DNA of 64,000 nucleotides, taken from the NCBI GenBank assembly GCA_001817065.1, contig MHHQ01000005.1, forward strand, positions 18,651-82,650. Direction: 5' to 3'. The position numbers and the translations under genes are program-made. The DNA comes from Candidatus Andersenbacteria bacterium RIFCSPHIGHO2_02_FULL_46_16 (GTDB lineage Bacteria > Patescibacteriota > Andersenbacteria > UBA10190). Below, in pieces: positions 6,806-36,436 of the stretch. The first letter of the stretch is position 1. The number at the start of each line of letters is the position of its first letter. The notes below the pieces were generated by a model. It was given only the letters and a program-made list of their open reading frames with translations. It ran no database searches and was not told where the DNA came from.

Positions 6806-6853
6806 AGGATGAGTTAAATTGGTTAATTTACATGGTTATTATACGCTTGATCT

Positions 6854-7258: not shown

Positions 7259-7282
7259 CCAATGCTCAATGACCAATAACCA

Positions 7283-17667: not shown

Positions 17668-17690
17668 AACAGCCCCTCGGGGCTGTTTTT
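17668..17690. terminator. Rho-independent bidirectional terminator
   Basis: AACAGCCCC-TC-GGGGCTGTT perfect 9-bp stem, with an A-run upstream and TTTTT downstream. Lies between convergent genes. Confidence 0.65.
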
Positions 17691-20142: not shown

Positions 20143-21135
20143 ATGCCAAAGGTTATAATTATCATAATATTTGCAGTTTTGGTACTGGGCATTATATTGG
20201 GTGGGTCTTTTTTAGTGTGGCAACAATTTGGTGGATCTAATACGGCAGGAGAAACGCCGATCCAGGATAACACCGGCGCTTTGTTTGGCACATTACCGTC
20301 CGCGGAACAGACCCAGAACCAACCGACCGATGGAGCCTTACTTGATACGGGAGATAACGATCAAGACGGTTTAACAAATAGCGAGGAGCAGGTTTGGGGG
20401 ACGGACATTAATAATCCCGATACCGATGGGGACGGTTATTTAGACGGAGAGGAAGTAGTGGCAAACCATGATCCAAATAAACCCGCACCGGATGATTTAT
20501 TGGCGCCAACCCAGACTACCCAACTTACCGCAAACCAAGTACCAGCACCGCTGACTAATTTGACGACTGCCAGTATTGAACGATTCTTTGCAGACGATGT
20601 GGATTTATCCGGAGAACCAATAAATTTAACTACCGAGTATAACAACCAATACGCGGAGACTGATCGTTCCCCGGCAACCATGAGCGAATTTGCGGCAAGA
20701 CAAGTCGTCATTACAAAATTACCCAGACCGCAGGATAGCGCGCTGCCTGAGACCAAAGAAACAACGCCGGCATTGGTTGAGCAATACCTAACAATTGCCA
20801 ACAACCCCTCAGCGTTAGCTAATTCCAGTATTTATTCGGACGCACAGTTTGAGCTTTATCGAAACAACAACGCTGGCGCGATGAGCAATATTGCCAATAC
20901 AGTAAGATCGTATCGAACAGGTTTACAAAATGCGTCGGTGCCGGCGATAGCAGCACCCGTCCATATTTTGCTATTAGGATATACAGAGCTGCTGACGAAT
21001 ACTTTTGAGAAAATAGCTTTATGGAACGAGGATCCGGTGACGTCGATGGTTGCATCAAGACAATTAGAGGCGATAGACAGAACATATTATCCAATTATTC
21101 AAAATGAACTGCAGCGCCTGGAGGCTTTGCAGTAG
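20143..21135 (+). CDS. N-terminally membrane-anchored protein with thrombospondin type-3-like Ca-binding repeats
   Basis: TM anchor 'IIIIIFAVLVLGIILGG', then 'DTGDNDQDGLTNSEE…DTDGDGYLDGEE' (DxDxDGxxDxxE repeats). Confidence 0.55.
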   Translation: MPKVIIIIIFAVLVLGIILGGSFLVWQQFGGSNTAGETPIQDNTGALFGTLPSAEQTQNQPTDGALLDTGDNDQDGLTNSEEQVWGTDINNPDTDGDGYLDGEEVVANHDPNKPAPDDLLAPTQTTQLTANQVPAPLTNLTTASIERFFADDVDLSGEPINLTTEYNNQYAETDRSPATMSEFAARQVVITKLPRPQDSALPETKETTPALVEQYLTIANNPSALANSSIYSDAQFELYRNNNAGAMSNIANTVRSYRTGLQNASVPAIAAPVHILLLGYTELLTNTFEKIALWNEDPVTSMVASRQLEAIDRTYYPIIQNELQRLEALQ

Positions 21136-21144
21136 TGATAAGCT

Positions 21145-24100
21145 ATGACAATTCCAGTTTGGGGGCTGCTCGGTGTTTTTACTTCGACATTTGTGGCGCC
21201 ATTTGTAAGTGCTGTGGCACCAATCCCGCTCGCCCTACCGCAAACGGTTCGCTATGACGAATATATAGCCAATCAAATTGCCCGGGCGGAATTTTCTAGT
21301 GATCCACAACATTTATTATCAATATATAAGACAGCGGGTCAGGCGGAAGGACGGAAAGGAGAGCAAGGGCCCTTCATCACAGCTTTTATTTATAGCGGCA
21401 GTACTTGCAGCACTATTGGAGACGAGCAAAGTTATCGGATTGTACTACACAATATCGGCAATGAAACAGCTCAATCGATATCGGTGCAGAATTTGTACCC
21501 GGAATACACTAGCTTACTGAGGGCTGAACCAGAAGCCGAACATGACTCTACACAAAGATTGTTGACGTGGGGGGGGCAAGAATTAGCTAGCGGCGGCACG
21601 CTTACTTTCTACTTCAGCGTTAAAACAGAACAAGCAGCCGCGGGTTATCTCGATAACCTAACAGTCTATTACGGAGGAGGGGATAACGGTATGAAAGTTA
21701 CTATTGGCGAGCGGGCATTGTCGGGTGTTTGTACGGTAACAGACAGTATTAGAAGTTTTATAGCTGGCCGAGCGGCCCCTAAACCAGCGATTCTTTGTGA
21801 TCCAGCAGAACAAGGATGCTCCTCGAATTATCAAGGAGTAGGGCTGGGCCCTAATTACCGACGAGCCTTGCAACCGGGGAATCAACCTACCATCTGCTCG
21901 CTACATGACAAACAACTACGGCAAGGCCAAGTGATACCGTGTAGAGATAATCTGCCGCAATTAGGCCCCATGTTTGCTGAGGCGATGGCTGATATTCTAC
22001 CGGGGGAGTGCCGAACGTTAGAAGATAATCGTGTGGTTCAACCGGGTATGAACGATGCTTTGAATCGTCGAAGTAAACCGGCGGCTTATTACATGGGCCC
22101 ATTAAATGGTGTCGCTGTATATGAGAGCGGCAATGACTTTAAAAGAGTGGTGCATGAGAATTCTTTACTAGGCATCAAGAATCTGGACGGGGTTCGTGAT
22201 GTTTTAATGCCAGTGCATATAAGTAACTGGGGAGAATTTGTGAAGATAGCCCGTAATGTTTACTCGGGCAGCATGGATCCCGATGCAGCCGTGGCGGACA
22301 TGCAAGGGAGAAAGGCTACATGGGAAAGTAATGTTCAGTCACAGCATTCCTCACTTAATACCGCCTATGCCGTAGTGCAGAACGCACGAAAAAATAATTT
22401 TAAAAGCATTCTGTGCGGTGGATCCAATTTGTCTGATGTAAATACATGTAAACTGCTGTCCAATGCGCAGAGTACCATTCGCGCTGCCTGTTGTGGTTTA
22501 GAGATTTTGCTGCAAACACGGGCAGATCTGGCTAAGGGTATTATCCCAGCTATACCTTATGACTGTCCCAAGGCCAGAGCGTTTGGAACCGGGGGTTTGG
22601 AAACCGGGTTACCGCAAGTATATGCGGCCTATGAAGAAAGCCTGAACAGCAGCTCTTTCCCGGCAGCTCAAAACAAGAGCTTGAATGATTATTCCCTAAT
22701 GCTAGATAGCTGGGAAAGCAGATTCGTCCCGGCAATTGATAAATATAAGTCAGGCGACAAAGAAGCAATGGTTCAATTTATCAATAAGATGCAAGAAGAT
22801 CAGGTGACAGTATTCGCGAATAGTCTAATGAAGGCTTATCGAGAACAGATGTTGGTTGATATTAATAATGACAATAAAATTCGTTTGGGTATCTATGAGG
22901 ACAAATTAAATAAACCAAAGGAAATCGCTACTTCTTGCGCTAAAGAACTGCCCAACGAATATGATACACCGGACATCCGGTCGGTGGAATTAACGATGTG
23001 CGAAAACGGCACGCCATCACAACCAGTGGTCGCTGAGGTAAACTTGCGGGAAGAAACAAATGAAATTTATTCTCGCCAGCCGATTGCCCCGCCGCTGATT
23101 ACTCAGGTACAGGTTACTATAGACCAACGGATGACTTTTGGTTCATCATGTTCCGGCCGGCCAGGGGACCCTTGGTGGGCAGCGGATTGTTCGTGTGATT
23201 GCGGTCAGGTTGTCCCGGTTTCCGAAGGCAGCTTACAGTTTTGCATGGCCGGACAGGGGTATTATACGGTGGGCGGTTTACCGCCACCGCCGGGATGGCC
23301 AAGACCAGATTACTTACCTCCCGGAATTCCAGAACCATACGTCTATAACAATGTGCCTAATAGCTTGGCAGGCTGGTGGCAAGCGATTAAATATTCAAGC
23401 CGACAGGGGCTGGTGGAATTTAGTATTAATAGAGTCGAAACGAAAAGCTTATCGCTGAAAAAGGCAACTGTGCTTTCATGGATTGGTGAAAAATTTGTAC
23501 AACCCGTTATGGCTCAAGTGGGGATAACTTCTCCGTTGTCTTCACCGCCGATGCCACCCGATCCACCGCCACTAGATCCCCTAGAAACTTTGCCAGCCGG
23601 CACATGCGGTGACGGAACAATAGACGCAAATGAGAGTTGTGACGCAGCAGCAGTACCAAACGGATGTCCTGCAGATAGCATTTGCAGTCTTTGTATATGT
23701 ACGATGGGTGCACCGTCAGTAACTCCTGTGTTTATTCCGACACAAGGAGTGTCTCCGGCGATGTCTCCAGTTAGTCCAGTACCTTCGGTCTCGCCAGCAG
23801 CATCAGCTTCTATACAGCCGACTATCACACCCAGTCCGTCTCCGCTGATTCCACCGACGGTCCCAATTGATCCAACACCGCCGATTACTCCGACAATCCC
23901 GCCCACTGTAACCCCAATGGTAACGTTAGAGCCACCCAGCTTAGCTCCGTCGACAGAAGCCTCTCCAGCTAGTCCGGCACCTACATTATCTCCGGCTGTT
24001 ACACCAACAATAGCTATATCGCCAAGTCCGTCTCCACTGATTACACCGACGGTCCCAATTGATCCAACACCGCCGATTCCTCCGACAGTGCTGCCCACGG

Positions 24101-24567
24101 TAAGTCCAATGGCATCTAGGTCACCTTCACCACTAATTAGCCAGTCACCGTCGCCGAGCCCATCTTCTTTGATGTCTCCATCGCCATCTTTGCCCCCCTG
24201 CCCCTCCGCGAGCCCGCAACCTAGTGTCAACCCGTCACCCAATATTAGCCCCTCTCCCTCCTCATTGCCTTTACCATCCACCAGCATCCAATCACCATCT
24301 CCGGAAATTGTTAATCCAATTGTCTGGCATGATATCTGGGTAACTTCGAAGGCAGAATGCTTAGCTAATTTCCAAGGCTGTCATCATTTCAATCCGAGCG
24401 GTAGTTGTGTAGAAGAGCCGTCACCACCGCCACCTCCACCTCCCTCGCCGGAGATTTCTCCCTCATCACCACCTCCCTCGCCGTCAACAAAACAGAGCCC
24501 GCAGCCATCCCCTGTGGTTTCGCCAAAGCTGTGCGTGAACCCCGACGGAACAGTTGTTTATTATTAA
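21145..24567 (+). CDS. Giant secreted surface protein with Myxococcus-type Cys-rich motif and C-terminal Pro/Thr/Ser-rich tandem repeats
   Basis: 1140 aa with a signal peptide. 'CGDGTIDANESCDAAAVPNGCPADSICSLCIC' motif. Duplicated block 'SPSPSPLI(P/T)PTVPIDPTPPI(T/P)PT…'. Poly-Pro C-terminus. Confidence 0.6.
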   Translation: MTIPVWGLLGVFTSTFVAPFVSAVAPIPLALPQTVRYDEYIANQIARAEFSSDPQHLLSIYKTAGQAEGRKGEQGPFITAFIYSGSTCSTIGDEQSYRIVLHNIGNETAQSISVQNLYPEYTSLLRAEPEAEHDSTQRLLTWGGQELASGGTLTFYFSVKTEQAAAGYLDNLTVYYGGGDNGMKVTIGERALSGVCTVTDSIRSFIAGRAAPKPAILCDPAEQGCSSNYQGVGLGPNYRRALQPGNQPTICSLHDKQLRQGQVIPCRDNLPQLGPMFAEAMADILPGECRTLEDNRVVQPGMNDALNRRSKPAAYYMGPLNGVAVYESGNDFKRVVHENSLLGIKNLDGVRDVLMPVHISNWGEFVKIARNVYSGSMDPDAAVADMQGRKATWESNVQSQHSSLNTAYAVVQNARKNNFKSILCGGSNLSDVNTCKLLSNAQSTIRAACCGLEILLQTRADLAKGIIPAIPYDCPKARAFGTGGLETGLPQVYAAYEESLNSSSFPAAQNKSLNDYSLMLDSWESRFVPAIDKYKSGDKEAMVQFINKMQEDQVTVFANSLMKAYREQMLVDINNDNKIRLGIYEDKLNKPKEIATSCAKELPNEYDTPDIRSVELTMCENGTPSQPVVAEVNLREETNEIYSRQPIAPPLITQVQVTIDQRMTFGSSCSGRPGDPWWAADCSCDCGQVVPVSEGSLQFCMAGQGYYTVGGLPPPPGWPRPDYLPPGIPEPYVYNNVPNSLAGWWQAIKYSSRQGLVEFSINRVETKSLSLKKATVLSWIGEKFVQPVMAQVGITSPLSSPPMPPDPPPLDPLETLPAGTCGDGTIDANESCDAAAVPNGCPADSICSLCICTMGAPSVTPVFIPTQGVSPAMSPVSPVPSVSPAASASIQPTITPSPSPLIPPTVPIDPTPPITPTIPPTVTPMVTLEPPSLAPSTEASPASPAPTLSPAVTPTIAISPSPSPLITPTVPIDPTPPIPPTVLPTVSPMASRSPSPLISQSPSPSPSSLMSPSPSLPPCPSASPQPSVNPSPNISPSPSSLPLPSTSIQSPSPEIVNPIVWHDIWVTSKAECLANFQGCHHFNPSGSCVEEPSPPPPPPPSPEISPSSPPPSPSTKQSPQPSPVVSPKLCVNPDGTVVYY

Positions 24568-24626
24568 TTTTTCTGAGGTCACCTTGTTAGTTAAATAATA
24601 TAAGATATAATAATTAAATAATCATT

Positions 24627-25367
24627 ATGAATGAAACAACAGAAGGAAATAACCCGTATCAATCACCGGTAGGAGATCCATTAGACCAGCGTTCGCCGCT
24701 GGGGGAGGAGGTAGAGCGAACGGGTCTTCGAATAGCGGTGGTAGTAGCGGTAGTTATATTAGTACTATTTGGGTTGTATTGGGGTGGTAAATTGCTGTTA
24801 ATGCCAGGAGAAAAGGAGACTCCTGGGGGGCAAGGTGGCGTAGAGGTTTCGGTGGGATCGAAATGCAGTGATCCAACTGTTTATACGGACATTAATGTGG
24901 CATTAAGTAACGCGGGAGCAGTGTGCAAGATAGATTTGAGCGGACAAAATTTACCGTCACTGCCTATTTCGATTGGCTATTTTTCAAACTTAGTAGAACT
25001 AGATGTAAGTAATAATGAAATCTCTTGGCTGCCATCGGAGATAGGGTGGCTACAAAAGTTAGAGAAATTTGATACCAGTAATAATAAACTGCCTTCTTTA
25101 GCGCTAGAAATAGGGTGGCTTCGCAAGTTGAAGGAATGGAATTTATCGAACAACCAACTCACTTGGTTACCAAGTGAAATTGGCTGGTTAGTAGAGATGG
25201 AGAATTTGAACTTGTCTAATAACCAACTTAGTGCTGTTCCAATAGATTTAGGTTGGATGGCTAAGATGCAAAAATTAGATTTGTCTGGCAACCCTCCGGA
25301 AGTGGCAGCGTCTGCCGACAGACTGAGGCCTTATATGGCCGGTGCAAATATTGTTTTACCGCAGTAG
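24627..25367 (+). CDS. Membrane-anchored leucine-rich repeat (LRR) protein
   Basis: Anchor 'VVILVLFGLYWGG', then about 8 LRRs ('LDVSNNEISWLPSEIGWLQKLEKFDTSNNKL…'). Confidence 0.7.
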   Translation: MNETTEGNNPYQSPVGDPLDQRSPLGEEVERTGLRIAVVVAVVILVLFGLYWGGKLLLMPGEKETPGGQGGVEVSVGSKCSDPTVYTDINVALSNAGAVCKIDLSGQNLPSLPISIGYFSNLVELDVSNNEISWLPSEIGWLQKLEKFDTSNNKLPSLALEIGWLRKLKEWNLSNNQLTWLPSEIGWLVEMENLNLSNNQLSAVPIDLGWMAKMQKLDLSGNPPEVAASADRLRPYMAGANIVLPQ

Positions 25368-25613: not shown

Positions 25614-26498
25614 ATGAATCCGATAAATAAAATGGGGTGGCGAGTAGTGGGGATGACGACAGTGGTTGTATTAGTTATAGCTGGGTTATATTGGGGAGGA
25701 CAGAAATGGCTTAAAGGAGACGGTGATCAAACAACGACACCAGGCGGGTCTTTGTCTTTGGCCGATAAAACGCGAGATAGCGATGGCGATGGGATGGCCG
25801 ATTTGTACGAAACAGCTTTCTATAGTACTAATCCCAATAGTGCTGATACAGACGGTGATGGAACGGGTGATCGGGACGAGGTGGTGGCTGGCCGAGATCC
25901 GCTGATTCCAGGTCCAAACGATGTCAGTAAGCCGGCAACGGGTGAGCAAATCACTCAAGTGGACACCTTTACCAAAAAATATTTGGCATCGTTGCCAGAG
26001 GATGTGCCGCGCGAACAGATTCTGGATCAAGTAAGAATAGAAGCGTTCGTCAATGCGAATAAGGGAGCATTGCTGCCACCGGTCACTATAACTACTTCAT
26101 CGAATGAGGGAAAAGAGGCAGTGCAGGCTTACTTGGATGCCGTATCCAGCACACATAATAAAGAGTTGCGTATTGTTACGAGCGCAGATGTTGAGGCGGC
26201 ATTCCGGCTGCTGATTAATACCCAAGACAAGCAGCCAATGCAGGGGATTGTTGATGTTTTACGAAAGAATGTAGTGATACTGCAAAAAGTCACAGCACCG
26301 AACGAGGTAGCAGGCTTGCACGAAAAGATGATCGCAGCGACAACCGCGCTCCAAATCAACAGCGAGGGATTACTTAATATTGACCAGGATTTTGTCGGCG
26401 GTTTGATTGCGGCGAAAAAAATCGAGGAACTAGGTGGGGTGTTTCAGGAGATGGCGACATCGGTTAAGGAATTGGAGACTAAGTATGGATTGGAATAA
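25614..26498 (+). CDS. N-terminally membrane-anchored protein with TSP3-like Ca-binding repeats (paralog of 20143..21135)
   Basis: Anchor 'VVLVIAGLYWGG', then 'DSDGDGMADLYE…DTDGDGTGDRDE'. Same architecture as the 20143 gene. Confidence 0.55.
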   Translation: MNPINKMGWRVVGMTTVVVLVIAGLYWGGQKWLKGDGDQTTTPGGSLSLADKTRDSDGDGMADLYETAFYSTNPNSADTDGDGTGDRDEVVAGRDPLIPGPNDVSKPATGEQITQVDTFTKKYLASLPEDVPREQILDQVRIEAFVNANKGALLPPVTITTSSNEGKEAVQAYLDAVSSTHNKELRIVTSADVEAAFRLLINTQDKQPMQGIVDVLRKNVVILQKVTAPNEVAGLHEKMIAATTALQINSEGLLNIDQDFVGGLIAAKKIEELGGVFQEMATSVKELETKYGLE

Positions 26499-26590
26499 AC
26501 GAAACATGCATAAAACACAGGGGACGAAACATGCACAAAGCACAGAACACAAAACCCAAACAAAGCACAAAACTAACAGACCAAACAAAT
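26499..26590 (+). repeat. A+C-rich strand-biased intergenic repeat (family core CACAAAGC(C/A)CAAACAAA(A/G)CACA)
   Basis: 'gaaacatgcacaaagcacagaacacaaaacccaaacaaagcacaaaac'. The plus strand is almost devoid of G and T. Same family as 30798-31075, 32013-32180 and 33240-33300. Confidence 0.75.
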
Positions 26591-26620
26591 ATACCGGTAA
26601 TTTTTAAGGAAGAATGGAAA

Positions 26621-28360
26621 ATGGAAATAAGGAAACAAGAAAAAGAATATCGGAAAAAACTAAGCGTCGGGGCGCTAGTTTTGGGTTTAGTGGCTTTAAG
26701 CATGACGGCGGACGTACGTGATGCCTGGGCCGATCCGCATGGGATATTTTATACAGCAATCGGGCAACAACAATTGTTTTTTAACGTGTTAGCGGCACTG
26801 GATCAGGCCGACTATGTGGAAACAGCCTTTGATCGAGAAGCGCGCCGAAAAGCCCGGGAAGCAGTATCTGCCGAGCAGCCTTTTGCCAAAGAGACTGAGT
26901 CGGGCGGACGCTTTACAAAAGAAACAGAGGTGGCCAGCGATAGCGGATACTTAACACAGCCCGGCACACCGACATTGCTTAACCGAGCAGTGACTTTGGA
27001 TGGAGCAGACCTGTACACTGATCAGCTAGTGCGGGAATTCGGGGCGGAATCGGCGAGGCGTAACGCGGCAGCGGAGCTGCTGCAGACACTGTGCGCATAT
27101 GGGTTTGGTATTAAGGAATGTGATAATGAAATTAAACCAGGGCTAACACCTGAGCAGAGACAGGCCGAGGTCTTGGCTATGGAGCAGCGCCGGCGTGAAG
27201 CAGTAGTGGTAGATCCGTTGGAGTGGCAAGCTATGCCTGTTTTAAATGGTGTTTTAGCCGCATTGAATTCGGGAACAGAGGAGGATGAGACTGAACGAGC
27301 TTTAAGATGGGTATTTCAGATTAATGAACCATATGCTTTTTCAAACGAAGTGGCGTTATGGCGTCAGCAAATAAACCAACTACCCGAGTTGGAAAGACCA
27401 GCGCATCTGGCAACGCTGCAAGGGATGATTGATGAAGTGGCAACGCAATATATGCCAGATAAATCAGTGTCTTGGCCGTTTTTAGAAATTAAAACCGAGG
27501 CGGACGGAAGTGGCTCTTATAGACATCTTATATGGAACCCTATTAGCGCTTCTGATTGTTGGCCTAATAATAGGCGCACTGTCCCTTGTTTGGAATACAA
27601 CTACGGCGAAGCATTGTCTCAGGCTGGTTTGCCCACAGACGTAGCGTCTTATGTGAAAAGAGTTAATGATGCCATTTTTAGCGATTCGTCAAGACTAAGC
27701 AATGTAGCTTCAGAAGCATTTAAAAGAGTGGAATATCAACAAGGTTTGATAGAAAATGAGGGTTTGTTGGCGGACGCGAACCTAAAAAGCAATCCACCTC
27801 CTTCTCCGTCGCCGGACGTAACGCCGTTATCAAGTTACGGGGAATTATCGTTGCTGATTAATAATCCGGTAGCAGCGCGGAAAGCTAGCGTTTATGGCAT
27901 ACCAAACGTACTGGGGCAACTAGCGACCAGCCAGCAAGCCAGTTCGTTAACAGGCTTGGATAATCCGGGAGGCGTGCAATTAGTGAAAAGAAGCGGCAGC
28001 AGCGGTACGCCGGGGAGCGGAGAGCCGGAATGCAGTAATGGAGTAAATGACGACGGTGATAATTATATTGATTACCCGCTGGATCCGGAATGTGCTAGTG
28101 CAACCGACACTTCAGAAAGCCAGTCGGGACCGCAAGCCGCGGCGAGCAACACCGGCCCGCAGGTGGCTGGAGCGCTGGATTTATTATTTAAGCCCAGTGA
28201 GAATTTCTTTGATAAAGATAAGGATCCGACCTCTCCGTCGGCTAATATAATTTCACCAATACTGGAGTTTGGCGCACGCCATGCCTTGCGGGTAATGACC
28301 GCTGGCAAGTGGCGGCCGGGGACAACTGCTGGTGTTACGTGCGGATTTACGTGTGATTAA
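26621..28360 (+). CDS. Secreted protein with a Cys/Asp-rich 'ECSNGVNDDGDNYIDYPLDPEC' motif, hypothetical
   Basis: The track ORF starts at 26531 inside the CA-rich repeat. The probable true start is ATG 26621, preceded by AAGGAAG, followed by a signal peptide 'LSVGALVLGLVALSMTA'. Confidence 0.55.
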   Translation: MEIRKQEKEYRKKLSVGALVLGLVALSMTADVRDAWADPHGIFYTAIGQQQLFFNVLAALDQADYVETAFDREARRKAREAVSAEQPFAKETESGGRFTKETEVASDSGYLTQPGTPTLLNRAVTLDGADLYTDQLVREFGAESARRNAAAELLQTLCAYGFGIKECDNEIKPGLTPEQRQAEVLAMEQRRREAVVVDPLEWQAMPVLNGVLAALNSGTEEDETERALRWVFQINEPYAFSNEVALWRQQINQLPELERPAHLATLQGMIDEVATQYMPDKSVSWPFLEIKTEADGSGSYRHLIWNPISASDCWPNNRRTVPCLEYNYGEALSQAGLPTDVASYVKRVNDAIFSDSSRLSNVASEAFKRVEYQQGLIENEGLLADANLKSNPPPSPSPDVTPLSSYGELSLLINNPVAARKASVYGIPNVLGQLATSQQASSLTGLDNPGGVQLVKRSGSSGTPGSGEPECSNGVNDDGDNYIDYPLDPECASATDTSESQSGPQAAASNTGPQVAGALDLLFKPSENFFDKDKDPTSPSANIISPILEFGARHALRVMTAGKWRPGTTAGVTCGFTCD

Positions 28361-30297
28361 TGATTATGAGGATTATTAGAAACAATATTGCTCTACCCCC
28401 ATACCAGACAATTTCATCAGTCAGGGCAGTGATGGGTGATGGGCTCTTTCATTCCTATAAGAAAGCCTCGTTTTTTAGCCTGTGGTATGGTGGTTTAATT
28501 GTTTTGATACTGGTTTGTTTGGTTGGTTTAAGACCAGCGTTAGCGCAGGAATTAGCACCGGTTGATCTTGATGTGCCTAGGTTGGCGCATGAGACGCAGA
28601 GTGAGCTTATTGCTCTGGGTTGCGAAGAAGTGGATCTTACAAACAAACAGGCTTTGCTAGCGGCCAGAGCGCAGAGCTGGCAACTAATAATACCGGTTGA
28701 TGCTAATGGGAATAGCATGACGTTCTGTTCTATACAGGCAGTAGAAAAATTGCAGCCGTTGAGAGGAGGACAAGTTAAACAAGCCGCGACTGGTTGGCGT
28801 GAAGTATTAGGAAGAATTGGTCTTTTTGGTTTTGATGCCACTTCTTTTCTTCTAACGGGCTCGATTGGTTGGCTTTTTACTTTAGGTGCTCAAATAGGTG
28901 GTTCCGTGTTTAGTTACACTATTTTGCTTTTAACACCGTTGTTTCTTGTTTCTGAGCATATAACAAACAGTACTGTGAGAAGCCTCTGGCCGATAGTTCT
29001 GGGCATAGTTAATCTTGGATTTATGTTAGCTTTGGTTTTTATTGCACTGACAACAGTCTTACGGTTAGAGGTTGGCGGTGGAGTAAGGCGGTCACTGCCA
29101 CGCTTGTTGCTAGCAGCGCTGTTAGTAAATTTTAGTTTAGTGATAGCCGGCGTAGTAATTGATTTTACACGATTGTTAATAAGGGTCTTGGCGGTTGTTT
29201 TCTCGGTGCCTGATCTTACTAGTGACTTGCCTGGTCTTTTAGAGCCAGCTGGTAATTTCGGTCCCATATATGAGGCATTGAAAACCGTGGGGCCGACGTG
29301 GTCATCATCAACTAATGCTCTTAGGGCTTTTATTGGTATGTTAATTGTCTGGATGGTGGCTAGCTCGGGGTTGGTGCTTTTGTTCAATTTGGCAATGCGG
29401 TACATAATGTTGCTTGGTTTGTTGATAGTTTCCCCGTTCGCCTATTTGTTTGTGGCTCTGCCAAATACAGCTAAATTGGCTGGTTTATGGTGGTCATCGT
29501 TTTTTAAATATGTTTTTTATGCGCCAGCAGCACTGTTGATATTGCTGCTAGTTGGGAAGATGAGTCAGATGTCTCTCCCCGGAATCACCGATGGGGTTGC
29601 AAGTGGTTTGGTAAGTGTAATGTTTTTGACCGTCGGTTTTATCGCGGCAGCTCGTGCCGGTAAGTATGCGGGCATTGCGGGATCAGCGGCGATGATTAGT
29701 TTTGCACAAAAAACGGGGCAAAAAGGGAGAAATTTGATGTATAGGGGAGCAAGGGGAATGGGTAGGGGATACATGGCAGCCACAGGGGCTCGAGCTGCCA
29801 CTAAGTATGCTGGTGCGCAGATTGGTTTATTTGGCCGGACGGCCGGTAAAAACCTGTTGTCTTACATTCCTGGTGCGGGCAAAGCAGCAAAGACAAAGGG
29901 TGGCCCGATGGCCGATCGCTTGTTACCAAGTAAAGGTGAACGACAAGCTCGGGCTGCGGCAGTTACGGCGGCCAGGGCTGGTAATTATAATGACCCGTCT
30001 TTGGGATCATCTAGATTGGCAAACAGCGTTGTTGGCGCTCATTTAGCTAGGCAGGCAGGACCTCAGCTTGCAAATATGGGCGCAGTGGGTACCGCAAGCC
30101 AAATTAATGCGGCAGTTAAGAATAAAGAATTAGTTAGAAATTTGGACGATACACAAAGGGCTAATTTAGAAGCTCAAATATTAGTTAATACGTCTTTCAG
30201 TGTTGCCCCAGAAGAAAATGAGAAAGTACGGCAGAGGTTGATCAATGAGTTGAATAACACAATAAGAGACGTTGAATCAAAAGACTATAAAGCCTAA
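28360..30297 (+). CDS. Polytopic membrane protein, VirB6/TrbL-like (putative T4SS channel component)
   Basis: 645 aa, at least 8 TM segments, then a Gly/Ala/Arg-rich hydrophilic tail. Start ATG overlaps the upstream stop (TAATG). Assignment is by architecture and context only. Confidence 0.4.
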   Translation: MIMRIIRNNIALPPYQTISSVRAVMGDGLFHSYKKASFFSLWYGGLIVLILVCLVGLRPALAQELAPVDLDVPRLAHETQSELIALGCEEVDLTNKQALLAARAQSWQLIIPVDANGNSMTFCSIQAVEKLQPLRGGQVKQAATGWREVLGRIGLFGFDATSFLLTGSIGWLFTLGAQIGGSVFSYTILLLTPLFLVSEHITNSTVRSLWPIVLGIVNLGFMLALVFIALTTVLRLEVGGGVRRSLPRLLLAALLVNFSLVIAGVVIDFTRLLIRVLAVVFSVPDLTSDLPGLLEPAGNFGPIYEALKTVGPTWSSSTNALRAFIGMLIVWMVASSGLVLLFNLAMRYIMLLGLLIVSPFAYLFVALPNTAKLAGLWWSSFFKYVFYAPAALLILLLVGKMSQMSLPGITDGVASGLVSVMFLTVGFIAAARAGKYAGIAGSAAMISFAQKTGQKGRNLMYRGARGMGRGYMAATGARAATKYAGAQIGLFGRTAGKNLLSYIPGAGKAAKTKGGPMADRLLPSKGERQARAAAVTAARAGNYNDPSLGSSRLANSVVGAHLARQAGPQLANMGAVGTASQINAAVKNKELVRNLDDTQRANLEAQILVNTSFSVAPEENEKVRQRLINELNNTIRDVESKDYKA

Positions 30298-30299
30298 TC

Positions 30300-30797
30300 T
30301 TGTGCAGATTGTTTAATATGGGTCTTGATTATAATAGTATACCGTCGGGATCGGTGGTAACCGTGTCGCAAGCCGAAGGAGAGCAATATGTGGCGGGATT
30401 GTTTGAATTGCCCCAGATAGCTCGACAAGCCATGGTGTCGACGCGAACAGGGGCGTTTGTGAGAGGCCTGACTAAGGCTTATGGGCTGGAACAGATTAAA
30501 GCGCCGATAATTGCATTGTCAATATTAAAAACAGGGATTGGCAAGATACCGCTTAGTGGGTTGGGGGCTTATTTATCTGGCCAACTAAGGCTTCCTAACG
30601 ATAAAGCGCAAAGGATGGCGCGCGAGATAGAACAAGATTTATTTGAACCAGTTCGGCAGGAGCTGGAGGCGCATTGGGCGAAGCAGAAAAAAGAGGAACC
30701 GGGAAGGCAAGCACAGACGAAAGCGACAGAAGGAGGAGCAAGGAATGTGCTGAATCTTAAGATGGACAAAGCTCCGCCTAAGCCACCGTGGAGATAG
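30300..30797 (+). CDS. Hypothetical protein of the T4SS-like cluster
   Basis: 165 aa, no motif. An alternative start lies at 30318. Confidence 0.4.
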   Translation: MCRLFNMGLDYNSIPSGSVVTVSQAEGEQYVAGLFELPQIARQAMVSTRTGAFVRGLTKAYGLEQIKAPIIALSILKTGIGKIPLSGLGAYLSGQLRLPNDKAQRMAREIEQDLFEPVRQELEAHWAKQKKEEPGRQAQTKATEGGARNVLNLKMDKAPPKPPWR

Positions 30798-31075
30798 TAC
30801 ACAAAACATTCACAAAACACAGTGCACAAAGCCCAAACAAAACACAAAAGACAAACTGATACAAACACGACGCACTTATCCTACCGTTACGGTTGAGAAG
30901 GGGAATGAAACATTCACAAAACACAGTGCACAAAGCCCAAACAAAACACAAAAGACAAACTGATACAAACACGACGCACTTATACTGCTATTACTTTTGA
31001 GAGTAAGGGCGAAACATTCCCAAAACATAGTACACAAAGCCCAAACAAAACACAGTACACAAACACGAATAAACA
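30798..31075 (+). repeat. Tandem array (about 2.7 copies, 104-bp period) of the A+C-rich repeat
   Basis: Unit 'cattcacaaaacacagtgcacaaagcccaaacaaaacacaaaagacaaactgatacaaacacgacgcacttat…' starts at 30807, 30911 and 31015. Copies 1 and 2 are nearly identical; copy 3 is diverged. Confidence 0.85.
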
Positions 31076-31102
31076 GCGCGGACAGACTCTAAATGAGATT
31101 TA

Positions 31103-31483
31103 ATGACACGACATACAAGTCCATATCGTGATCTGGAGGAACGAACATTATTGTTTGCCAAAGAGGTATTAAGAATGTGTCAGTCTTTACCTAAAAGTAC
31201 TATTAATAATAGGTTGATTGATCAACTGATTAGATCGGCCGGGTCAGTAGGGGCGAATTACCGAGAGGCAAACGACGCTATAAGCAAGAAGGATTTTGTT
31301 CATCGTTTACGTATTGCACGAAAGGAAGCAAAGGAAACGAGCTATTGGCTTGATTTGTTACGGGAGGTTAATGTGGAACTGGTGGATAAAATTTCAGTAT
31401 TACAACAAGAGGCAATAGAGCTGAGAAATATCTTGTCTGCTATAATTCAGAAATGTGAGGTTAAGTCCCGTGAACGTGTTTGA
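31103..31483 (+). CDS. Four-helix-bundle protein (TIGR02436 family, '23S rRNA intervening-sequence protein'-like)
   Basis: 126 aa. 'SAGSVGANYREA…KDFVHRLRIARKEAKETSYWLDL' matches the family signature. Confidence 0.65.
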   Translation: MTRHTSPYRDLEERTLLFAKEVLRMCQSLPKSTINNRLIDQLIRSAGSVGANYREANDAISKKDFVHRLRIARKEAKETSYWLDLLREVNVELVDKISVLQQEAIELRNILSAIIQKCEVKSRERV

Positions 31484-31545
31484 TAGGTTTGTAATATTGG
31501 ATTTTGTTTGGGCTTTGTGTTTTGAGTTTTTATATAGTTTATAAT

Positions 31546-31992
31546 ATGCGATTTCAAGTTCCCCAATTCGTCGACATTGAAGATCGGATTATTGGTCCGC
31601 TGACGCTAAAGCAATTTGCTTTTTATCTGATTGCGGCCATGATCATTGGCATTTTATATGTCATGGTAAGTTTAGGCGTGCTGATCGTGTTGGCATTGCC
31701 GATTGCGGGGACAGCTTTGCTGTTTGCTCATGCGAGGTTTTATGGGCAGCCGTTCGGTCAGGTGCTGATTAATGGCATTAGCTATGCTATGGGGTCGAAG
31801 TTGTATTTATGGCGAAGAACTGACAAGGATAACAAGATAAAAATCAGCGGGTCGGAGTTTAGCGATGAAGCGGAAGTATATGGGGTTTCATCTATTGACT
31901 TGATGAGCCAAACTTTAAACACAGAAGGAAATGTCGTGGGAGCAGATTTAGAGGACCCGTTGCTCGAAGAACCGGAGGGGAGCAAGGATTGA
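31546..31992 (+). CDS. PrgI-family protein (VirB3-like T4SS component)
   Basis: 'MRFQVPQFVDIEDRIIGPLTLKQFAFYL' matches the PrgI N-terminal signature, followed by two TM segments. The track ORF starts at TTG 31504. ATG 31546 is directly abutted by TATAAT. Confidence 0.6.
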   Translation: MRFQVPQFVDIEDRIIGPLTLKQFAFYLIAAMIIGILYVMVSLGVLIVLALPIAGTALLFAHARFYGQPFGQVLINGISYAMGSKLYLWRRTDKDNKIKISGSEFSDEAEVYGVSSIDLMSQTLNTEGNVVGADLEDPLLEEPEGSKD

Positions 31993-32012
31993 TTTTATAC
32001 AAAGGGCAGGTT

Positions 32013-32180
32013 AGAAACATTCCCAAAGCACAGTGCACAAAACCCAAACAAAACACAACAACCTAAACCTTACAAACAATCGACGAAACTTATCCAAAAC
32101 ACAGTCTTTGCAAACTTAACAAACCATAACAAAGCGGTGACAAAATTTTACGAACAACGATAAAAACAGATAAAAACACA
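32013..32180 (+). repeat. A+C-rich strand-biased intergenic repeat copy
   Basis: 'gaaacattcccaaagcacagtgcacaaaacccaaacaaaacacaaca…cgacgaaacttatccaaaacacag…'. Confidence 0.75.
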
Positions 32181-32188
32181 GGGTATGG

Positions 32189-32350
32189 AAGTCACATTAT
32201 GAAATGCCACAAATATAGTGACGGGCCCTGTCGGCGCTGCACCCCCACCCGACGGCTTCGGTCTGCCAGGCGGGCAGCCTGCAGGCGCTCGGTGGGGGTC
32301 CCCCGCGCCGCCACCCGTTTATTTAAGAGTGGCATTTCATAATGTGACAT
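32189..32350. repeat. Palindromic element: perfect 20-bp inverted repeats flanking a 118-bp GC-rich core
   Basis: GTCACATTATGAAATGCCAC at 32191-32210 and its exact reverse complement at 32329-32348. The core is about 75% GC and internally self-complementary (GCGCtgcaCCCCCACC / GGTGGGGGtcccccGCGC). Confidence 0.75.
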
Positions 32351-32507
32351 CTATACAAACTTAATTCCAAAATATCCTCTTAAGGACCAATGAATGAACG
32401 AGATGGGGACCGTGGGAAGGAAAGGGAAGAAGTAGAAATACGGAGAAGGGGAGGCTTGCAACAAAAAGAATAGAAAGGGGCAGGGCGATAAGGTAAACTA
32501 TTAAGTG

Positions 32508-33239
32508 ATGTTAGAGAAGGACCAAAAAGGCAAATCCAGTCAGGAACTAGTGCAGATTACGGCGGTACGCGACGGAGTGGTGGTATTGGGGAATAATACC
32601 TTGCGGGCGACTTTGATCGTGTCTTCATTAAACTTCGCCTTAAAGTCTGAAGAGGAGCAAGATGCAATAATTTATGCCTTTCAAGGTTTTCTAAACTCAC
32701 TGGATTTCCCGGTACAGATTTTAGTGATGTCGAGAAAGCTGGATATTACATCCTATTTAGAGGAGCTGGATTCTCGTAAAGAACGGCAAAAAAATGAACT
32801 GCTGCGCTTGCAGATGGCCGAATATATTAATTTTATTTCAGAATTGGTCAAGGGTGGTAATATTATGACCAAGACTTTTTTTGTCTCCGTTTCGTTTGCG
32901 ATGGCGCAGAGCCGACAGTTGAACACGTTGGAAAAACTGGCCAAGACATGGCAAGGCATTGGAAAAGGCAATAAGCCATTTACTGACGTAGAGTTTGAGC
33001 ATTACAAGAAGCAATTAATGCAACGGGTGGAGCAAGTAGCTGTTGGTTTAAGAGGAGTGGGTTTACGTGTGGCACCGCTACAGACGCAAGAAGTGCTGGA
33101 ATTGTTTTACAGCATCCTAAATCCTGTTACGTCACGCAATTTACGTTTGCACAATGTAGCCAAACTGAGCGTAGAGGAAACCGGGGCACCAGACTTAGTG
33201 TCTAGCAACAGATCAGAGCAGCCGTGGGTGAGCAGGTAG
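32508..33239 (+). CDS. VirB4/TrbE-family N-terminal domain (CagE_TrbE_VirB-like), a separate ORF
   Basis: 'ITAVRDGVVVLGNNTLRATLIVSSLNFALKSEEEQDAIIYAFQGFLNSLDFPVQILVMSRKLD' resembles the conserved N-terminal region of VirB4 ATPases. No Walker motifs. The ORF ends at TAG 33237-33239. Confidence 0.5.
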   Translation: MLEKDQKGKSSQELVQITAVRDGVVVLGNNTLRATLIVSSLNFALKSEEEQDAIIYAFQGFLNSLDFPVQILVMSRKLDITSYLEELDSRKERQKNELLRLQMAEYINFISELVKGGNIMTKTFFVSVSFAMAQSRQLNTLEKLAKTWQGIGKGNKPFTDVEFEHYKKQLMQRVEQVAVGLRGVGLRVAPLQTQEVLELFYSILNPVTSRNLRLHNVAKLSVEETGAPDLVSSNRSEQPWVSR

Positions 33240-33300
33240 AGTACAAAACGTAGACAAAGCACAGACAGGCACAAAGTCCAAACAAAGCACAAGCCGTACA
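33240..33300 (+). repeat. A+C-rich strand-biased repeat copy, located between the two VirB4 pieces
   Basis: 'gtacaaaacgtagacaaagcacagacaggcacaaagtccaaacaaagcacaagccgtaca'. Confidence 0.7.
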
Positions 33301-33468
33301 TGTTTTATAAACTGCCATTAATCGGTAAAACCGTACAAACGGGATAGATTAGGCATTAGAAAATAGAAATATAGTAACCAGTAATCCGTAACTTGAAAAT
33401 GAGAATAAATAGGGTAGAGAGGGATGTTTATGGCTCGCTAGGGCTGGTTTTAATATATCTGTTATACT

Positions 33469-35298
33469 GTGGATATGCTGGGATTTAAAATTAAGAGGCA
33501 AACTAAGCAACAAAAGAAACCCGAGAAAGCCTTGCCTGAAGACCAGGCTAAGTTAAAGCAATGGCAGGAGGGAGTGGTGCGTTTGAAGGACATTCTAGCC
33601 CCAGCGGCTTTTTCAGTGTCCACTAAATATGTTGAGATAGACGGCAAGTTTGCCACGACGTTATTTGTGACGGCTTATCCGCGCTATCTGGAAACTAATT
33701 GGCTGTCACCAATAGTGAATTTTGATGTGGAGTTCGATATGGGGATGTTCGTTTATCCACAAGACTCCGCCACGATTTTAAGGCAATTGAAAAAACAGAT
33801 CACCCAAGTGTCCGCTTCGATAATCATGCGGACGGAGAAAGGTAAAGTGAGGGATCCACAGTTAGAAACTGCCTACCGAGACATTGAAGAACTGCGGGAC
33901 AGACTGGTGCAGGGAACGGAACGATTTTTTCAATTAAGTTTGTATCTGACGCTATATGCCGACAGTCAAGAAGAGTTAGAGGAAACTGTCGGACAGATTG
34001 AAGTGTTGTTAGAAGGCCGCCTGGTCTATATTAAGCCGGCTATATTCCAAATGAAGGAAGGATTCTTTTCGACCATTCCGCTGGGGCAGGACAAGCTGGC
34101 GAGAACTACCAACATGAGCTCATCGTCGCTATCAACAACCTTCCCTTTCGTGAGCTCCGACCTTTCTAGCAGTAATGGAATTTTGTTCGGTATTAATTTG
34201 CACAACAACAGCTTAATATTGTTTGATCGATTTAGTTTGGGCAATGCTAATATGGTGATCTTCGCTAAGTCTGGCGCGGGTAAATCGTACGCGGTTAAAC
34301 TTGAGATATTGCGGCAATTGATGTTTGATACGGAAGTGATTGTAATTGATCCGGAAAAGGAATACCGTTATTTGTCTGACTCGGTGGGCGGGGCTTATCT
34401 GCGGATAGCCACAGCGTCCGACCACAGGATCAACCCATTTGATTTGCCGGAGTTGGGAGAGGAAGACGAGCCAGAAACGGTGCTGCGGGAGAATATAACT
34501 CGTTTAATTGGTTTGGTTTCGCTGATGGCCGGGGGGTTTTCGCCAGAGGAAAACTCGGTGGTAGATAAGGCTTTGTGGGAAACATATGCGCTGAAAGATA
34601 TTACTAAAGGCATTAGATGGACAAAGCCTGAGGTGCCGACTTTGCAGGATTTTTATAATATTGTTGGCGACATGGAAGGCGGCGCTAATATTGCCTTGCG
34701 GATTGAGCGGTTTGTGGAAGGGACTTTTGCTGGGGTTTTTAACCGACCAACCAACATCGACTTGGATAATCAACTAGTAGTGTTCAATGTGCGTGATATG
34801 GAGGAGGAGCTGCGGCCGCTAGCTATGTATGTCGTCTTGGGGTTCATTTGGAACAAAGTACGTAGCTCGTTAAAGAAAAGAATACTGGTAGTGGACGAGG
34901 CGTGGGTGATGATGCAACACGAGGAGTCGGCTAAGTTTATGTTCTCCATCGCAAAACGGGCACGCAAATATTACTTAGGTGTAACGACGATTACGCAGGA
35001 TATACAGGATTTTCTGGATTCTAAGTACGGTAAACCGATTGTCACAAACTCTTCTTTGCAGCTGCTACTGCGCCAGTCGCCAGCGGCGATCGATTTGTTG
35101 GCGGATGTGTTTTATCTGACCGACCACGAGAAGTTTAGATTATTGGAAAGTGATGTGGGAGAAGGTATTTTATTTGCCGGGCTGAAACATGTAGCGATTA
35201 AAGTAGTGGCCAGTTATGCGGAGGACCAGGTAATAACCAGCGATCCACAGCAGGTGCTGGCGATTGAGGCGGCGAAGAGAGAGATGGCGGCTAATTGA
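33469..35298 (+). CDS. virB4: VirB4/TraE-family type IV secretion ATPase (C-terminal two-thirds)
   Basis: Walker A 'FAKSGAGKSY', Walker B 'ILVVDEAWVMM', 'YYLGVTTITQDIQDF'. N-terminal region 'YVEIDGKFATTLFVTAYPRYL' is VirB4-like. Track start is GTG 33469; first ATG at 33475. Confidence 0.8.
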   Translation: MDMLGFKIKRQTKQQKKPEKALPEDQAKLKQWQEGVVRLKDILAPAAFSVSTKYVEIDGKFATTLFVTAYPRYLETNWLSPIVNFDVEFDMGMFVYPQDSATILRQLKKQITQVSASIIMRTEKGKVRDPQLETAYRDIEELRDRLVQGTERFFQLSLYLTLYADSQEELEETVGQIEVLLEGRLVYIKPAIFQMKEGFFSTIPLGQDKLARTTNMSSSSLSTTFPFVSSDLSSSNGILFGINLHNNSLILFDRFSLGNANMVIFAKSGAGKSYAVKLEILRQLMFDTEVIVIDPEKEYRYLSDSVGGAYLRIATASDHRINPFDLPELGEEDEPETVLRENITRLIGLVSLMAGGFSPEENSVVDKALWETYALKDITKGIRWTKPEVPTLQDFYNIVGDMEGGANIALRIERFVEGTFAGVFNRPTNIDLDNQLVVFNVRDMEEELRPLAMYVVLGFIWNKVRSSLKKRILVVDEAWVMMQHEESAKFMFSIAKRARKYYLGVTTITQDIQDFLDSKYGKPIVTNSSLQLLLRQSPAAIDLLADVFYLTDHEKFRLLESDVGEGILFAGLKHVAIKVVASYAEDQVITSDPQQVLAIEAAKREMAAN

Positions 35299-35320
35299 TA
35301 ATAGAGTAAGTACGTGTTAT

Positions 35321-35983
35321 ATGGTGTTTGACGCTGGCCAAGATGGAGGTAGGCAAGAAGAAAAACAAGGTTTACGTAATCAAGTCTCAGACACGAGAAG
35401 GAAAGTGCTGCAAAGAAAAGCTGAATTAGCTGCGCTTAAAACCGCAGAAAAGGTTTCGAGTAAAGCAACTGGGGTAGTGGGGAAACAAGCGGGTCGCGCA
35501 GGGGGAAAAGTAGCCGCTAAGACGGCAGGTGTTCCGGTCCAAGTTGGTGAAAAGGCATTAGCAGCGACAGGTGTCGGCGCGCCTGTTGCTGCCGCAATAA
35601 TGGCTGCTCGACTAGTGGCGGAAAAAGGGGTAAGTGAAGCGACAGGGCAAATTGCTAAGCAGGCTTCCCGCCAATTGAGCAAAGCGCCGTTTAAACCATT
35701 AATAGCCGCACAAAAAAGACGCGTAAAAAAGGCCCAACAAAACGCGGGGGAAGCTGAAGAGGCTTTAGCGGAGTTTGGTGAAGATAGCGTAATGGACATT
35801 GTGGATGGAAAAATAAGGAAGGTTGTAGGAAAATTTGTTAGTATACCGGTGGAGGTCGCGTTTGGGTTGTTGTTGACGGTTTTTATGTTCCCATTTGTTA
35901 TTTTGGCAGTGGGTATAGTATTAGCAATAGTTAATATAGAAAGGTTGATACCAATAATTAGGCTGATGTCGTCAATTATTTAA
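35321..35983 (+). CDS. Ala/Lys-rich protein with C-terminal TM segments, hypothetical T4SS-cluster component
   Basis: The track ORF starts at TTG 35264 and overlaps virB4. ATG 35321 lies after the virB4 stop. The C-terminus has two hydrophobic helices. Confidence 0.4.
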   Translation: MVFDAGQDGGRQEEKQGLRNQVSDTRRKVLQRKAELAALKTAEKVSSKATGVVGKQAGRAGGKVAAKTAGVPVQVGEKALAATGVGAPVAAAIMAARLVAEKGVSEATGQIAKQASRQLSKAPFKPLIAAQKRRVKKAQQNAGEAEEALAEFGEDSVMDIVDGKIRKVVGKFVSIPVEVAFGLLLTVFMFPFVILAVGIVLAIVNIERLIPIIRLMSSII

Positions 35984-36007
35984 CTTTTTGAGTAGTGAGC
36001 TAACCCA

Positions 36008-36436
36008 ATGAAATATTTTTTACATAGCAAAATAAGAAGTGGAAAGGTTTTAATTATAACGTTTATACTATTCTATGGTTTAGGGTTGCCACATTCAGTT
36101 AAAGCACAGGCCGCGGTCCCTTGCCCTTGGGGCTTTTTGGAAGTGCTTGATGTAGACGGCGTTAGAGATATTTGCAGTATTATTGGTGGCAGCGGTGCTA
36201 CGGCTACAACGGCAATTGGAAGATTGTTGAGTTGGGTGACGTTAAGCTTGACAGCGCTAGTGATGATGGCAGCAGCGGTTGGCATTGTGATAGGCGGTTA
36301 TATATATATGACGGCGGGGGGCAGCGCGGATCGGGTGCAGCTGGCAAAAACTTGGATAATTGCTGCTTTACTGGGGATTACGATCGCTTTAACGGCTTTT
36401 GTGCTGCTGAATACAATTAGCACAACACTGGTTTGA
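36008..36436 (+). CDS. VirB2/TrbC-like pilin (putative)
   Basis: 142 aa. Signal peptide ending 'VKAQA', then two hydrophobic helices separated by a short loop ('VTLSLTALVMMAAAVGIVIGGYIYMTAGGSADRVQLAKTWIIAALLGITIALTAFVLL'), the classic T4SS pilin topology. Confidence 0.5.
   Translation: MKYFLHSKIRSGKVLIITFILFYGLGLPHSVKAQAAVPCPWGFLEVLDVDGVRDICSIIGGSGATATTAIGRLLSWVTLSLTALVMMAAAVGIVIGGYIYMTAGGSADRVQLAKTWIIAALLGITIALTAFVLLNTISTTLV

Follow-up and report, generated by a model that had tools for sequence, protein, structure and literature searches.

A probable two-gene VirB4 ATPase in a Patescibacteria-type secretion locus of Candidatus Andersenbacteria

We analysed a 64,000-nucleotide (nt) stretch of the genome of Candidatus Andersenbacteria bacterium RIFCSPHIGHO2_02_FULL_46_16 (contig MHHQ01000005.1, positions 18,651 to 82,650; the window hereafter), in which a co-directional, + strand gene cluster at ~25.6–36.4 kb encodes parts of a type IV secretion system (T4SS), with the VirB4 ATPase distributed over two open reading frames (ORFs), a small TrsD-like one (32508–33239) and a large one that carries the ATPase core (33475–35298). 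Very probably, this block is an origin-proximal chromosomal T4SS of the Patescibacteria kind, whose two-gene VirB4 is ancestral and selectively maintained, and the repeat now lying between the two genes came later. T4SSs of this kind are related to MPF_FATA, the class that comprises conjugation machinery of monoderm (single-membrane) bacteria. The two-gene TrsD and VirB4 arrangement of Patescibacteria is already known, having been published in 2025 (PMC12102498), and since the locus matches the published T4SS, it is to be regarded as an instance of a described system. A first-pass annotation, which a model had made by reading the sequence, called the cluster a minimal, unusual T4SS, a description that is superseded by the 2025 publication of the system and of its TrsD component.

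Andersenbacteria are placed in the Parcubacteria group of Patescibacteria, which are ultra-small bacteria, and the Ca. Andersenbacteria metagenome-assembled genome (MAG) GCA_001817145.1 matches the window. For comparison we used four independent assemblies from different samples that have the arrangement of the window (L001–L004), and the loci of relatives that are free of its repeats (L005–L009). All ORFs described in the first-pass annotation were recovered on the + strand with the same coordinates.

Two ORFs tile one VirB4

The large ORF starts at 33469; the public gene calls start the VirB4 core at ATG 33475, giving a protein of 607 amino acids (aa) that ends at 35298. As the first-pass annotation had said, it has both nucleotide-binding motifs, with Walker A (AKSGAGKS) at aa 264–271 (34264–34287) and Walker B (ILVVDE) at aa 470–475 (34882–34899). 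The core matches P-loop_TraG, AAA_10 and DUF87, and it covers positions 176–733 of the conju_CD1110 model (E = 2e-112) with 376.9 bits, above the curated cutoff of 325. It also matches the structure of a VirB4 C-terminal domain from a Gram-positive source (4ag5, E = 7e-42), aligns with residues 305–736 of R388 TrwK, and is colinear over aa 39–577 with aa 36–617 of the 672-aa pSK41 TrsE (~92% of that protein, on its N-terminal side; 25% identity, E = 1e-45). The best 120 homologues of the core are all 581–657 aa long, and the named ones at the top of the list are from Andersenbacteria or from unclassified 'bacterium' MAGs. The core is thus predicted to be a VirB4 ATPase of the monoderm (FATA) type. 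Scores against the single-chain VirB4 models lie below their cutoffs (TIGR00929 VirB4_CagE, positions 240–726, 138 bits vs 643; TIGR02746 TraC-F-type, positions 293–716, 179 bits vs 567), which places the core outside that class, its N-terminal module being, by these comparisons, a separate gene.

The small ORF (32508–33239, +; open from 32505) encodes a protein of 243 aa without a P-loop, and no Walker A motif was found in it, in agreement with the first-pass annotation. Its proposed similarity to VirB4 N-termini was borne out by matches to positions 3–125 of NF045971 (conju_CD1110) and to positions 98–231 of NF045975. The match to the TrsD model NF041427 (positions 12–160 of 201, E = 4.8e-8) scores 33.1 bits against an NCBI family cutoff of 200, and a direct comparison with pSK41 TrsD is colinear (hhalign E = 0.007). 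By sequence, the small protein is homologous to the staphylococcal/enterococcal TrsD subfamily while standing outside its membership, and precomputed matches assign it to the Pfam family PF26593 ('TraC-like'). A word-index search with the small ORF returned 1,544 homologues; the best 120, which carry PF26593, are without exception standalone proteins, 218–262 aa in length. A profile search against 1.84 billion representatives gave 3,184 matches; 148 of the 150 best representatives have fewer than 500 aa, and low-complexity tails are seen in the longer ones. Aligning 32 orthologues (56–87% identity to the protein of the window) gave 63 invariant columns. These results do not fit an inactivated gene, one of the three options considered in the first-pass annotation.

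Taken together, the two ORFs tile one VirB4 in the same order and without overlap, as confirmed by comparison with several models and fused proteins. Along the 752 positions of conju_CD1110, the small ORF takes 3–125 and the large ORF 176–733; the Mbov_0397 model shows the same tiling, and Pfam TraC_F_IV is shared out between the small ORF (38–177) and the core (298–373). Fused forms exist as well. In P0335 (797 aa), found in three Ca. Colwellbacteria MAGs, residues 8–211 align to the small ORF with 38% identity (E = 1e-42), and residues 221–791 align to core aa 28–597 with 52% identity. P0379 (898 aa) matches the small-ORF profile with residues 8–224 and aligns to the core with residues 323–892. 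These are the two fused relatives among the best 150 profile matches. The tail of the small ORF (aa 210–243) and the head of the core (aa 1–27) are poorly conserved and linker-like. The two proteins of the window thus jointly cover the whole chain of the single-chain VirB4 of CD1110 (a C. difficile conjugative transposon), of Mbov_0397 and of the fused proteins from the Candidate Phyla Radiation (CPR); unlike in those, the N-terminal module of ~200 aa is a separate polypeptide.

The alternative that survives best, which we nevertheless consider improbable, is that the small ORF encodes an independent accessory TrsD that resembles a VirB4 N-terminus, and that the 607-aa protein is a complete, short monoderm VirB4. 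Whether the large ORF alone amounts to a full VirB4 depends on the reference: it does when compared with pSK41 TrsE, which itself has a TrsD partner, but not when compared with the single-chain models. CD1110, Mbov_0397 and the fused CPR proteins, as well as the division of TraC_F_IV, argue against an accessory role, as does the structural comparison of the small-ORF model with the PDB by Foldseek, in which the 13 best matches are all chains of the R388 T4SS, apparently TrwK/VirB4. The disagreement is largely semantic, as both readings have two genes and one machine.

Some points weigh against reading the block as a Patescibacteria T4SS with a two-gene VirB4. The TrsD score of the small ORF is far under the family cutoff, its AlphaFold2 (AF2) model has moderate confidence (pLDDT 66), and searching the PDB sequences with it gave matches at chance level only. 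The physical association of the TrsD-like protein with the core is something we infer from these alignments, and a relaxase or coupling protein could lie elsewhere in the genome, the scans described below having covered the 64-kb window.

Orthologous junctions and the origin of the split

Between the small ORF and the core there are 229 nt (235 nt to ATG 33475), in which each of the three frames is closed by stop codons, and the ORFs on the two sides differ in frame. As previously annotated, this spacer holds one copy of an A+C-rich repeat, a solo arm at 33238–33292 (+). The first-pass annotation offered as one explanation that the repeat-bearing spacer had split the gene. We consider it very unlikely that a recent insertion of the A+C-rich repeat broke a single virB4 into two translated halves or a pseudogene, even though the copy starts right at the small ORF's stop codon, the repeat is confined in this operon to the species of the window (it was not found in L005–L009), and fused single-chain homologues exist in another CPR lineage. 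In the repeat-free relatives, trsD and virB4 are two ORFs already, and stop and start codons of their own delimit them. The gap between the two ranges from 1 nt in L005, where a Shine-Dalgarno sequence is present, through 14 nt (L007) and 75 nt (L009, VirB4 89% identical) to 80 nt (L008, 95% identical). Over its last ~26 nt, the spacer of L008 differs from that of the window by only one mismatch; as L008 shares this spacer end without having the repeat, the spacer is older than the repeat. The large and conserved family of standalone small-ORF proteins speaks against a recent break as well.

A rearrangement in another Andersenbacteria genome bears on the same question. In L006 (GCA_016197005.1, 8810–9953), prgI and the trsD-like gene are jointly inverted relative to virB4 and the rest of the cluster, and their position on the opposite strand makes them genes independent of virB4. 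The co-inversion suggests that the two form a functional pair, and it fits a tight partnership of PrgI with TrsD. The first-pass annotation had proposed a search of related genomes for an uninterrupted gene; every orthologous locus that we examined has two genes. Its third option, a lineage that naturally has a two-gene VirB4, is therefore the one upheld, by the repeat-free two-ORF relatives, the large standalone family and the inversion in L006. In the species of the window, and only there, repeat elements enlarged junctions that already existed; they created none.

A sequencing or assembly frameshift is practically negligible as an explanation of the split: although the sequence comes from a MAG and the frame changes from one ORF to the other, the sequence is identical in four assemblies from different samples, hence no assembly error, the gap has stop codons in all frames, and the other genomes examined have the two-gene structure too.

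We note that the three genomes with a spacer of 75–235 nt share a TATACT hexamer, which precedes the virB4 ATG by 6–9 nt (window 33449–33477, ...TGTTATACTGTGGATATG; L008 8014–8036, with one mismatch; L009 8976–9003, GGTATACTACATTTGATATG). Judged from its sequence, it could be an extended -10 promoter that gives a leaderless virB4 mRNA. A scan with consensus promoters found fewer promoter-like sites than in shuffled controls (12 vs 16.5), and because of this deficit we take the conserved TGTTATACT that stands 6 nt before the virB4 ATG only as a lead. TATACT itself was not flagged in the consensus scan because it has no -35 element.

Other components of the secretion system and their genomic context

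The 645-aa protein encoded at 28360–30297 (+) is a polytopic membrane protein with a hydrophobic run at aa 35–434 (12 overlapping windows in the raw scan). The top 6 PDB matches of its AF2 model (pLDDT 71) in the Foldseek search are all TrwI/VirB6 of R388 (E = 2.8e-3, prob 1.0, TMt 0.43–0.50). The protein is fast evolving, with 23 homologues only. One of them, P0409, carries PF04610 (TrbL), and weak TrbL matches are seen in two of six orthologues. A Pfam scan of the 645-aa protein itself had no match, its profile found nothing among the PDB sequences, and hhalign against pSK41 TrsL gave E = 0.41. Given the TrwI fold matches and the TrbL-bearing homologue, its earlier designation as VirB6-like is reasonably supported as a model-based prediction.

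The PrgI/VirB3-like membrane protein (148 aa from ATG 31546; 31546–31992, +) keeps its assignment, with a PF12666 match (E = 9e-7) of 29.8 bits, above the Pfam cutoff of 27; two overlapping hydrophobic windows span aa 15–65. For the VirB2-like T4SS pilin (142 aa, 36008–36436, +), which has a signal-like N-terminus and hydrophobic segments, the evidence is divided: PF18895 is recorded in the orthologue of L005 and weakly in that of L007, but the match in the window itself (E = 6e-5, 23.5 bits) is just below the cutoff of 26.6.

Four further proteins belong to the cluster or adjoin it. A 294-aa membrane-anchored protein (25614–26498, +) with a weak TSP3_bac match (TSP3 repeats) and one N-terminal transmembrane segment is the conserved upstream neighbour of the cluster, and its position is kept in L005–L009. 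It is followed by a secreted or anchored protein of 579 aa (26621–28360, +) with a hydrophobic segment at aa 14–32 and a C-terminal Cys/Asp motif, whose position is likewise conserved in these relatives; its longest ORF (609 aa) starts at 26531, within a copy of the A+C-rich repeat. A Pfam scan of this protein gave no match, and there is a weak match to an acidic double-disulfide repeat (E = 0.005). Downstream of the VirB6-like gene, a soluble protein of 159 aa (30318–30797, +) is a conserved member with orthologues of 144–198 aa in the same position; family searches with Pfam, NCBIfam and PADLOC found no match for it. Between virB4 and the pilin gene lies another conserved member, a 220-aa protein with C-terminal transmembrane segments (35321–35983, +).

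The cluster is chromosomal and lies between ksgA (19225–20079) and a cell-envelope glycosylation block, which is followed by yidC and dnaA. The dnaA gene (45896–47302) is 9.5 kb downstream of the cluster, and dnaN is present. The synteny from ksgA to dnaA is repeated in relatives, in which yidD, rnpA and rpmH are called between yidC and dnaA. We looked for relaxases, coupling proteins and reverse transcriptases in 38 ORFs across the window and in the Pfam matches of the public gene calls at 23.5–45.3 kb. In line with the first-pass annotation, neither a relaxase nor a type IV coupling protein was found in these scans of the window, and no reverse transcriptase domain was found among the window ORFs scanned. 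The pair that marks a conjugative T4SS, a relaxase plus a coupling protein of the VirD4 or TcpA type, is thus absent from the 64 kb.

Comparison with known systems

Quinonero-Coronel et al. (2025) described a clade of Patescibacteria VirB4 proteins related to MPF_FATA (PMC12102498). According to this work, TrsD is a remote homologue of the VirB4 N-terminus and, with 2,272 homologues, of which 1,664 adjoin virB4, outnumbers all other T4SS components in Patescibacteria; PrgI/VirB3, VirB6 and VirB2-like pilins are found near, relaxases are almost always absent, and the loci are often close to dnaA, dnaN, rnpA, ksgA and rpmH (PMC12102498). The locus of the window resembles this T4SS in its FATA-type VirB4 with an adjoining TrsD homologue (in all of L001–L009), its PrgI, VirB6-like protein and VirB2-like pilin, its chromosomal position not far from dnaA, rnpA, rpmH and ksgA and, within the 64 kb, the lack of an associated relaxase. 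We see no essential difference; the species of the window adds mobile repeats and a PF05635 gene in the operon spacers, and it has one pilin gene instead of an array.

The gene order prgI(virB3)-trsD-virB4 is that of trsC-trsD-trsE in the staphylococcal plasmids pSK41 and pGO1 (MPF_FATA, pGO1 subclass), where TrsD has ~230 aa. The plasmid pSK41 is conjugative and encodes a relaxase, a coupling protein like VirD4, a CHAP hydrolase and a VirB6 of the TrbL family; the 64 kb of the window contain none of the first three, and the VirB6-like protein does not align with TrsL. With R388, the likeness is at the fold level only (10–18% identity): the core and the model of the 645-aa protein match, and the model of the small ORF apparently matches, chains of the TrwK/VirB4-TrwM/VirB3-TrwI/VirB6 inner-membrane complex (7o41, 8rtb, 7o3v). 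As a conjugative system of the diderm type, R388 has an outer-membrane core complex together with VirB5 and VirB8–11, and its VirB4 is a single chain.

These comparisons lead us to propose the following working model. The TrsD-like subunit would provide in trans the membrane-proximal, VirB3-proximal part of the VirB4 N-terminal domain and would dock the hexameric ATPase core onto PrgI/VirB3 and the VirB6-like channel. ATP hydrolysis may then power the assembly of the VirB2-like pilin and, at the site of host-cell contact, the translocation of macromolecules, and the system would not be conjugative. A non-conjugative function had been suggested by the first-pass annotation, and it agrees with both the window and the literature. 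Ca. Southlakia epibionticum cannot grow epibiotically without its T4SS genes, among them one for a TrsD homologue (Wang et al. 2023, as reported in PMC12102498 and in a 2025 review, PMC12857230), and a 2026 preprint describes tubular structures, maybe T4SS pili, at the interface between CPR bacteria and their hosts.

Repeat elements in the operon spacers

The A+C-rich motif has seven matches in the 64 kb (zero expected), all of them at 26.5–33.3 kb and in operon spacers, and most copies begin at or just past stop codons. Besides the copy in the trsD-virB4 spacer, they include copies with overlapping 25-nt sub-repeats that start from the stop codon of the upstream gene (26494–26590, +), three tandem units of 104 nt (family D2; 100, 88 and 66% identity) at 30785–31096 (+), and a solo arm downstream of prgI (32007–32105, +). 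A single inverted copy, G+T-rich, is found at 31492–31530 (-). Between it and the last of the direct copies lies a gene (31103–31483, +) for a four-helix bundle protein of the family PF05635 (23S_rRNA_IVP; Pfam E = 7e-21). The two flanking copies pair in the predicted fold, the last of the 104-nt units as the 5' arm and the inverted copy as the 3' arm of a hairpin element that resembles an intervening sequence (IVS) of rRNA genes (element 31011–31545, stem 31022–31530). Neither the PF05635 gene nor any of the repeats was found in the orthologous clusters L005–L009; the gene is an insertion and not a part of the T4SS.

A 22-nt core of the repeat, CACAAARYCCAAACAAARCACA, recurs in 43 stretches from many CPR lineages (L010–L052). 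More than half of the copies in other CPR genomes (25/45) have a G+T-rich partner arm 32–177 nt downstream, giving hairpins of ~120 nt. In four of the 45, the partner arm is ~390–430 nt away with a PF05635 gene in between; arms flank a PF05635 gene in L020, L030 and L031, as in the window. In L034, the copy forms an insertion of 161 nt in a 16S rRNA gene, at the tip of a helix. In this contig (Parcubacteria GW2011_GWC2_48_17; 4710–5700 and 6362–7862), we also observed that three helix tips within the first 550 positions of the 16S rRNA gene carry insertions (149, 161 and 174 nt), and that farther along there is another 16S rRNA match, which overlaps a match to a group I intron.

Insertions with 23S_rRNA_IVP ORFs have been reported in CPR rRNA genes (PMC11270868). 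Like an rRNA IVS, the element has complementary arms that pair into a long stem, and its loop may or may not hold a PF05635 gene; unlike an rRNA IVS, the copies of the window lie outside rRNA helices, in the mRNA spacers of a protein operon, and they are mostly solo arms. From its sequence features, the A+C-rich repeat looks like the arm of a mobile rRNA-IVS-like hairpin element that also lands in operon spacers. A more far-reaching version, which we offer tentatively and think rather doubtful, is that an undescribed, CPR-wide hairpin element (~120 nt when empty, ~500 nt with PF05635) targets both rRNA helix tips and operon junctions, including five junctions of the T4SS operon in the species of the window, where the complete copy could be a processing site at which RNase III cuts the polycistronic mRNA into segments. 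No consistent bias was seen when the two strands of the hairpins were compared for G-U pairs and folding energy. An Rfam search of 26.3–33.6 kb returned nothing even at E <= 1, and the whole window has two tRNAs only. PADLOC defence models matched neither the PF05635 protein nor the cluster proteins of unassigned family.

We also considered a diversity-generating retroelement, with the PF05635 protein as Avd-like and the A-rich repeats as template and variable regions, and rejected it: there is no reverse transcriptase in the scanned ORFs, and the repeats are intergenic instead of being at the 3' end of a target ORF.

A second kind of element lies between prgI and the trsD-like gene, a near-perfect palindrome of 174 nt (32183–32356) with a GC-rich core and a highly stable predicted fold (dG = -102.8 kcal/mol, z = -9.7). 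An Rfam search with it had no match, and it was not found in the 95% relative (L008). Copies with 97–100% identity occur at many unique sites in JGI metagenome contigs (L053–L084), either as the whole element or as 97-nt half units that end exactly at its centre. In L072, a half unit adjoins what appears, on reading the sequence, to be the 3' part of a tRNA gene. These properties are MITE-like (miniature inverted-repeat transposable element), that is, those of a small non-autonomous mobile repeat.

Neighbouring genes

Upstream of the cluster, a conserved region (20143–25367) encodes a 330-aa TSP3-repeat protein, an 1140-aa surface protein (a DUF11/CLIPPER domain followed by a long Pro/Ser/Thr-rich low-complexity stretch) and a leucine-rich-repeat protein. 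The genes of the first two are syntenic in L005, and L007 and L009 have similar layouts. The proteins of this region are possible adhesins or T4SS-linked substrates. A cell-wall hydrolase with Peptidase_M23 and LysM domains is encoded 7.8 kb upstream of the cluster (17689–18840, -). VirB1 is absent from the cluster, and this hydrolase is a candidate functional analogue of it; M23 and LysM domains occur in some VirB1-like proteins of CPR bacteria (PMC12102498). Farther away, a 172-aa ORF (12077–12595) with a partial DDE_Tnp_1 transposase domain (E = 5e-5) is probably a transposase remnant.

Implications

As the secretion system and its TrsD component have been described before, the repeat elements are the only fresh material here, with the IVS-like hairpin family as a modest side lead. 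What the locus and its orthologues document is a range of states of the trsD-virB4 junction: genes that abut (1–14 nt), spacers of 75–80 nt and of 229–235 nt, an inverted prgI-trsD pair, and fused forms. Structural studies of the way in which TrsD completes VirB4 could draw on these states, and the co-inversion of prgI with trsD hints that VirB3 is the closest partner of TrsD. For the organism, the window indicates that small IVS-like and palindromic repeats can build up in an operon that corresponds to an essential one in a cultured relative.

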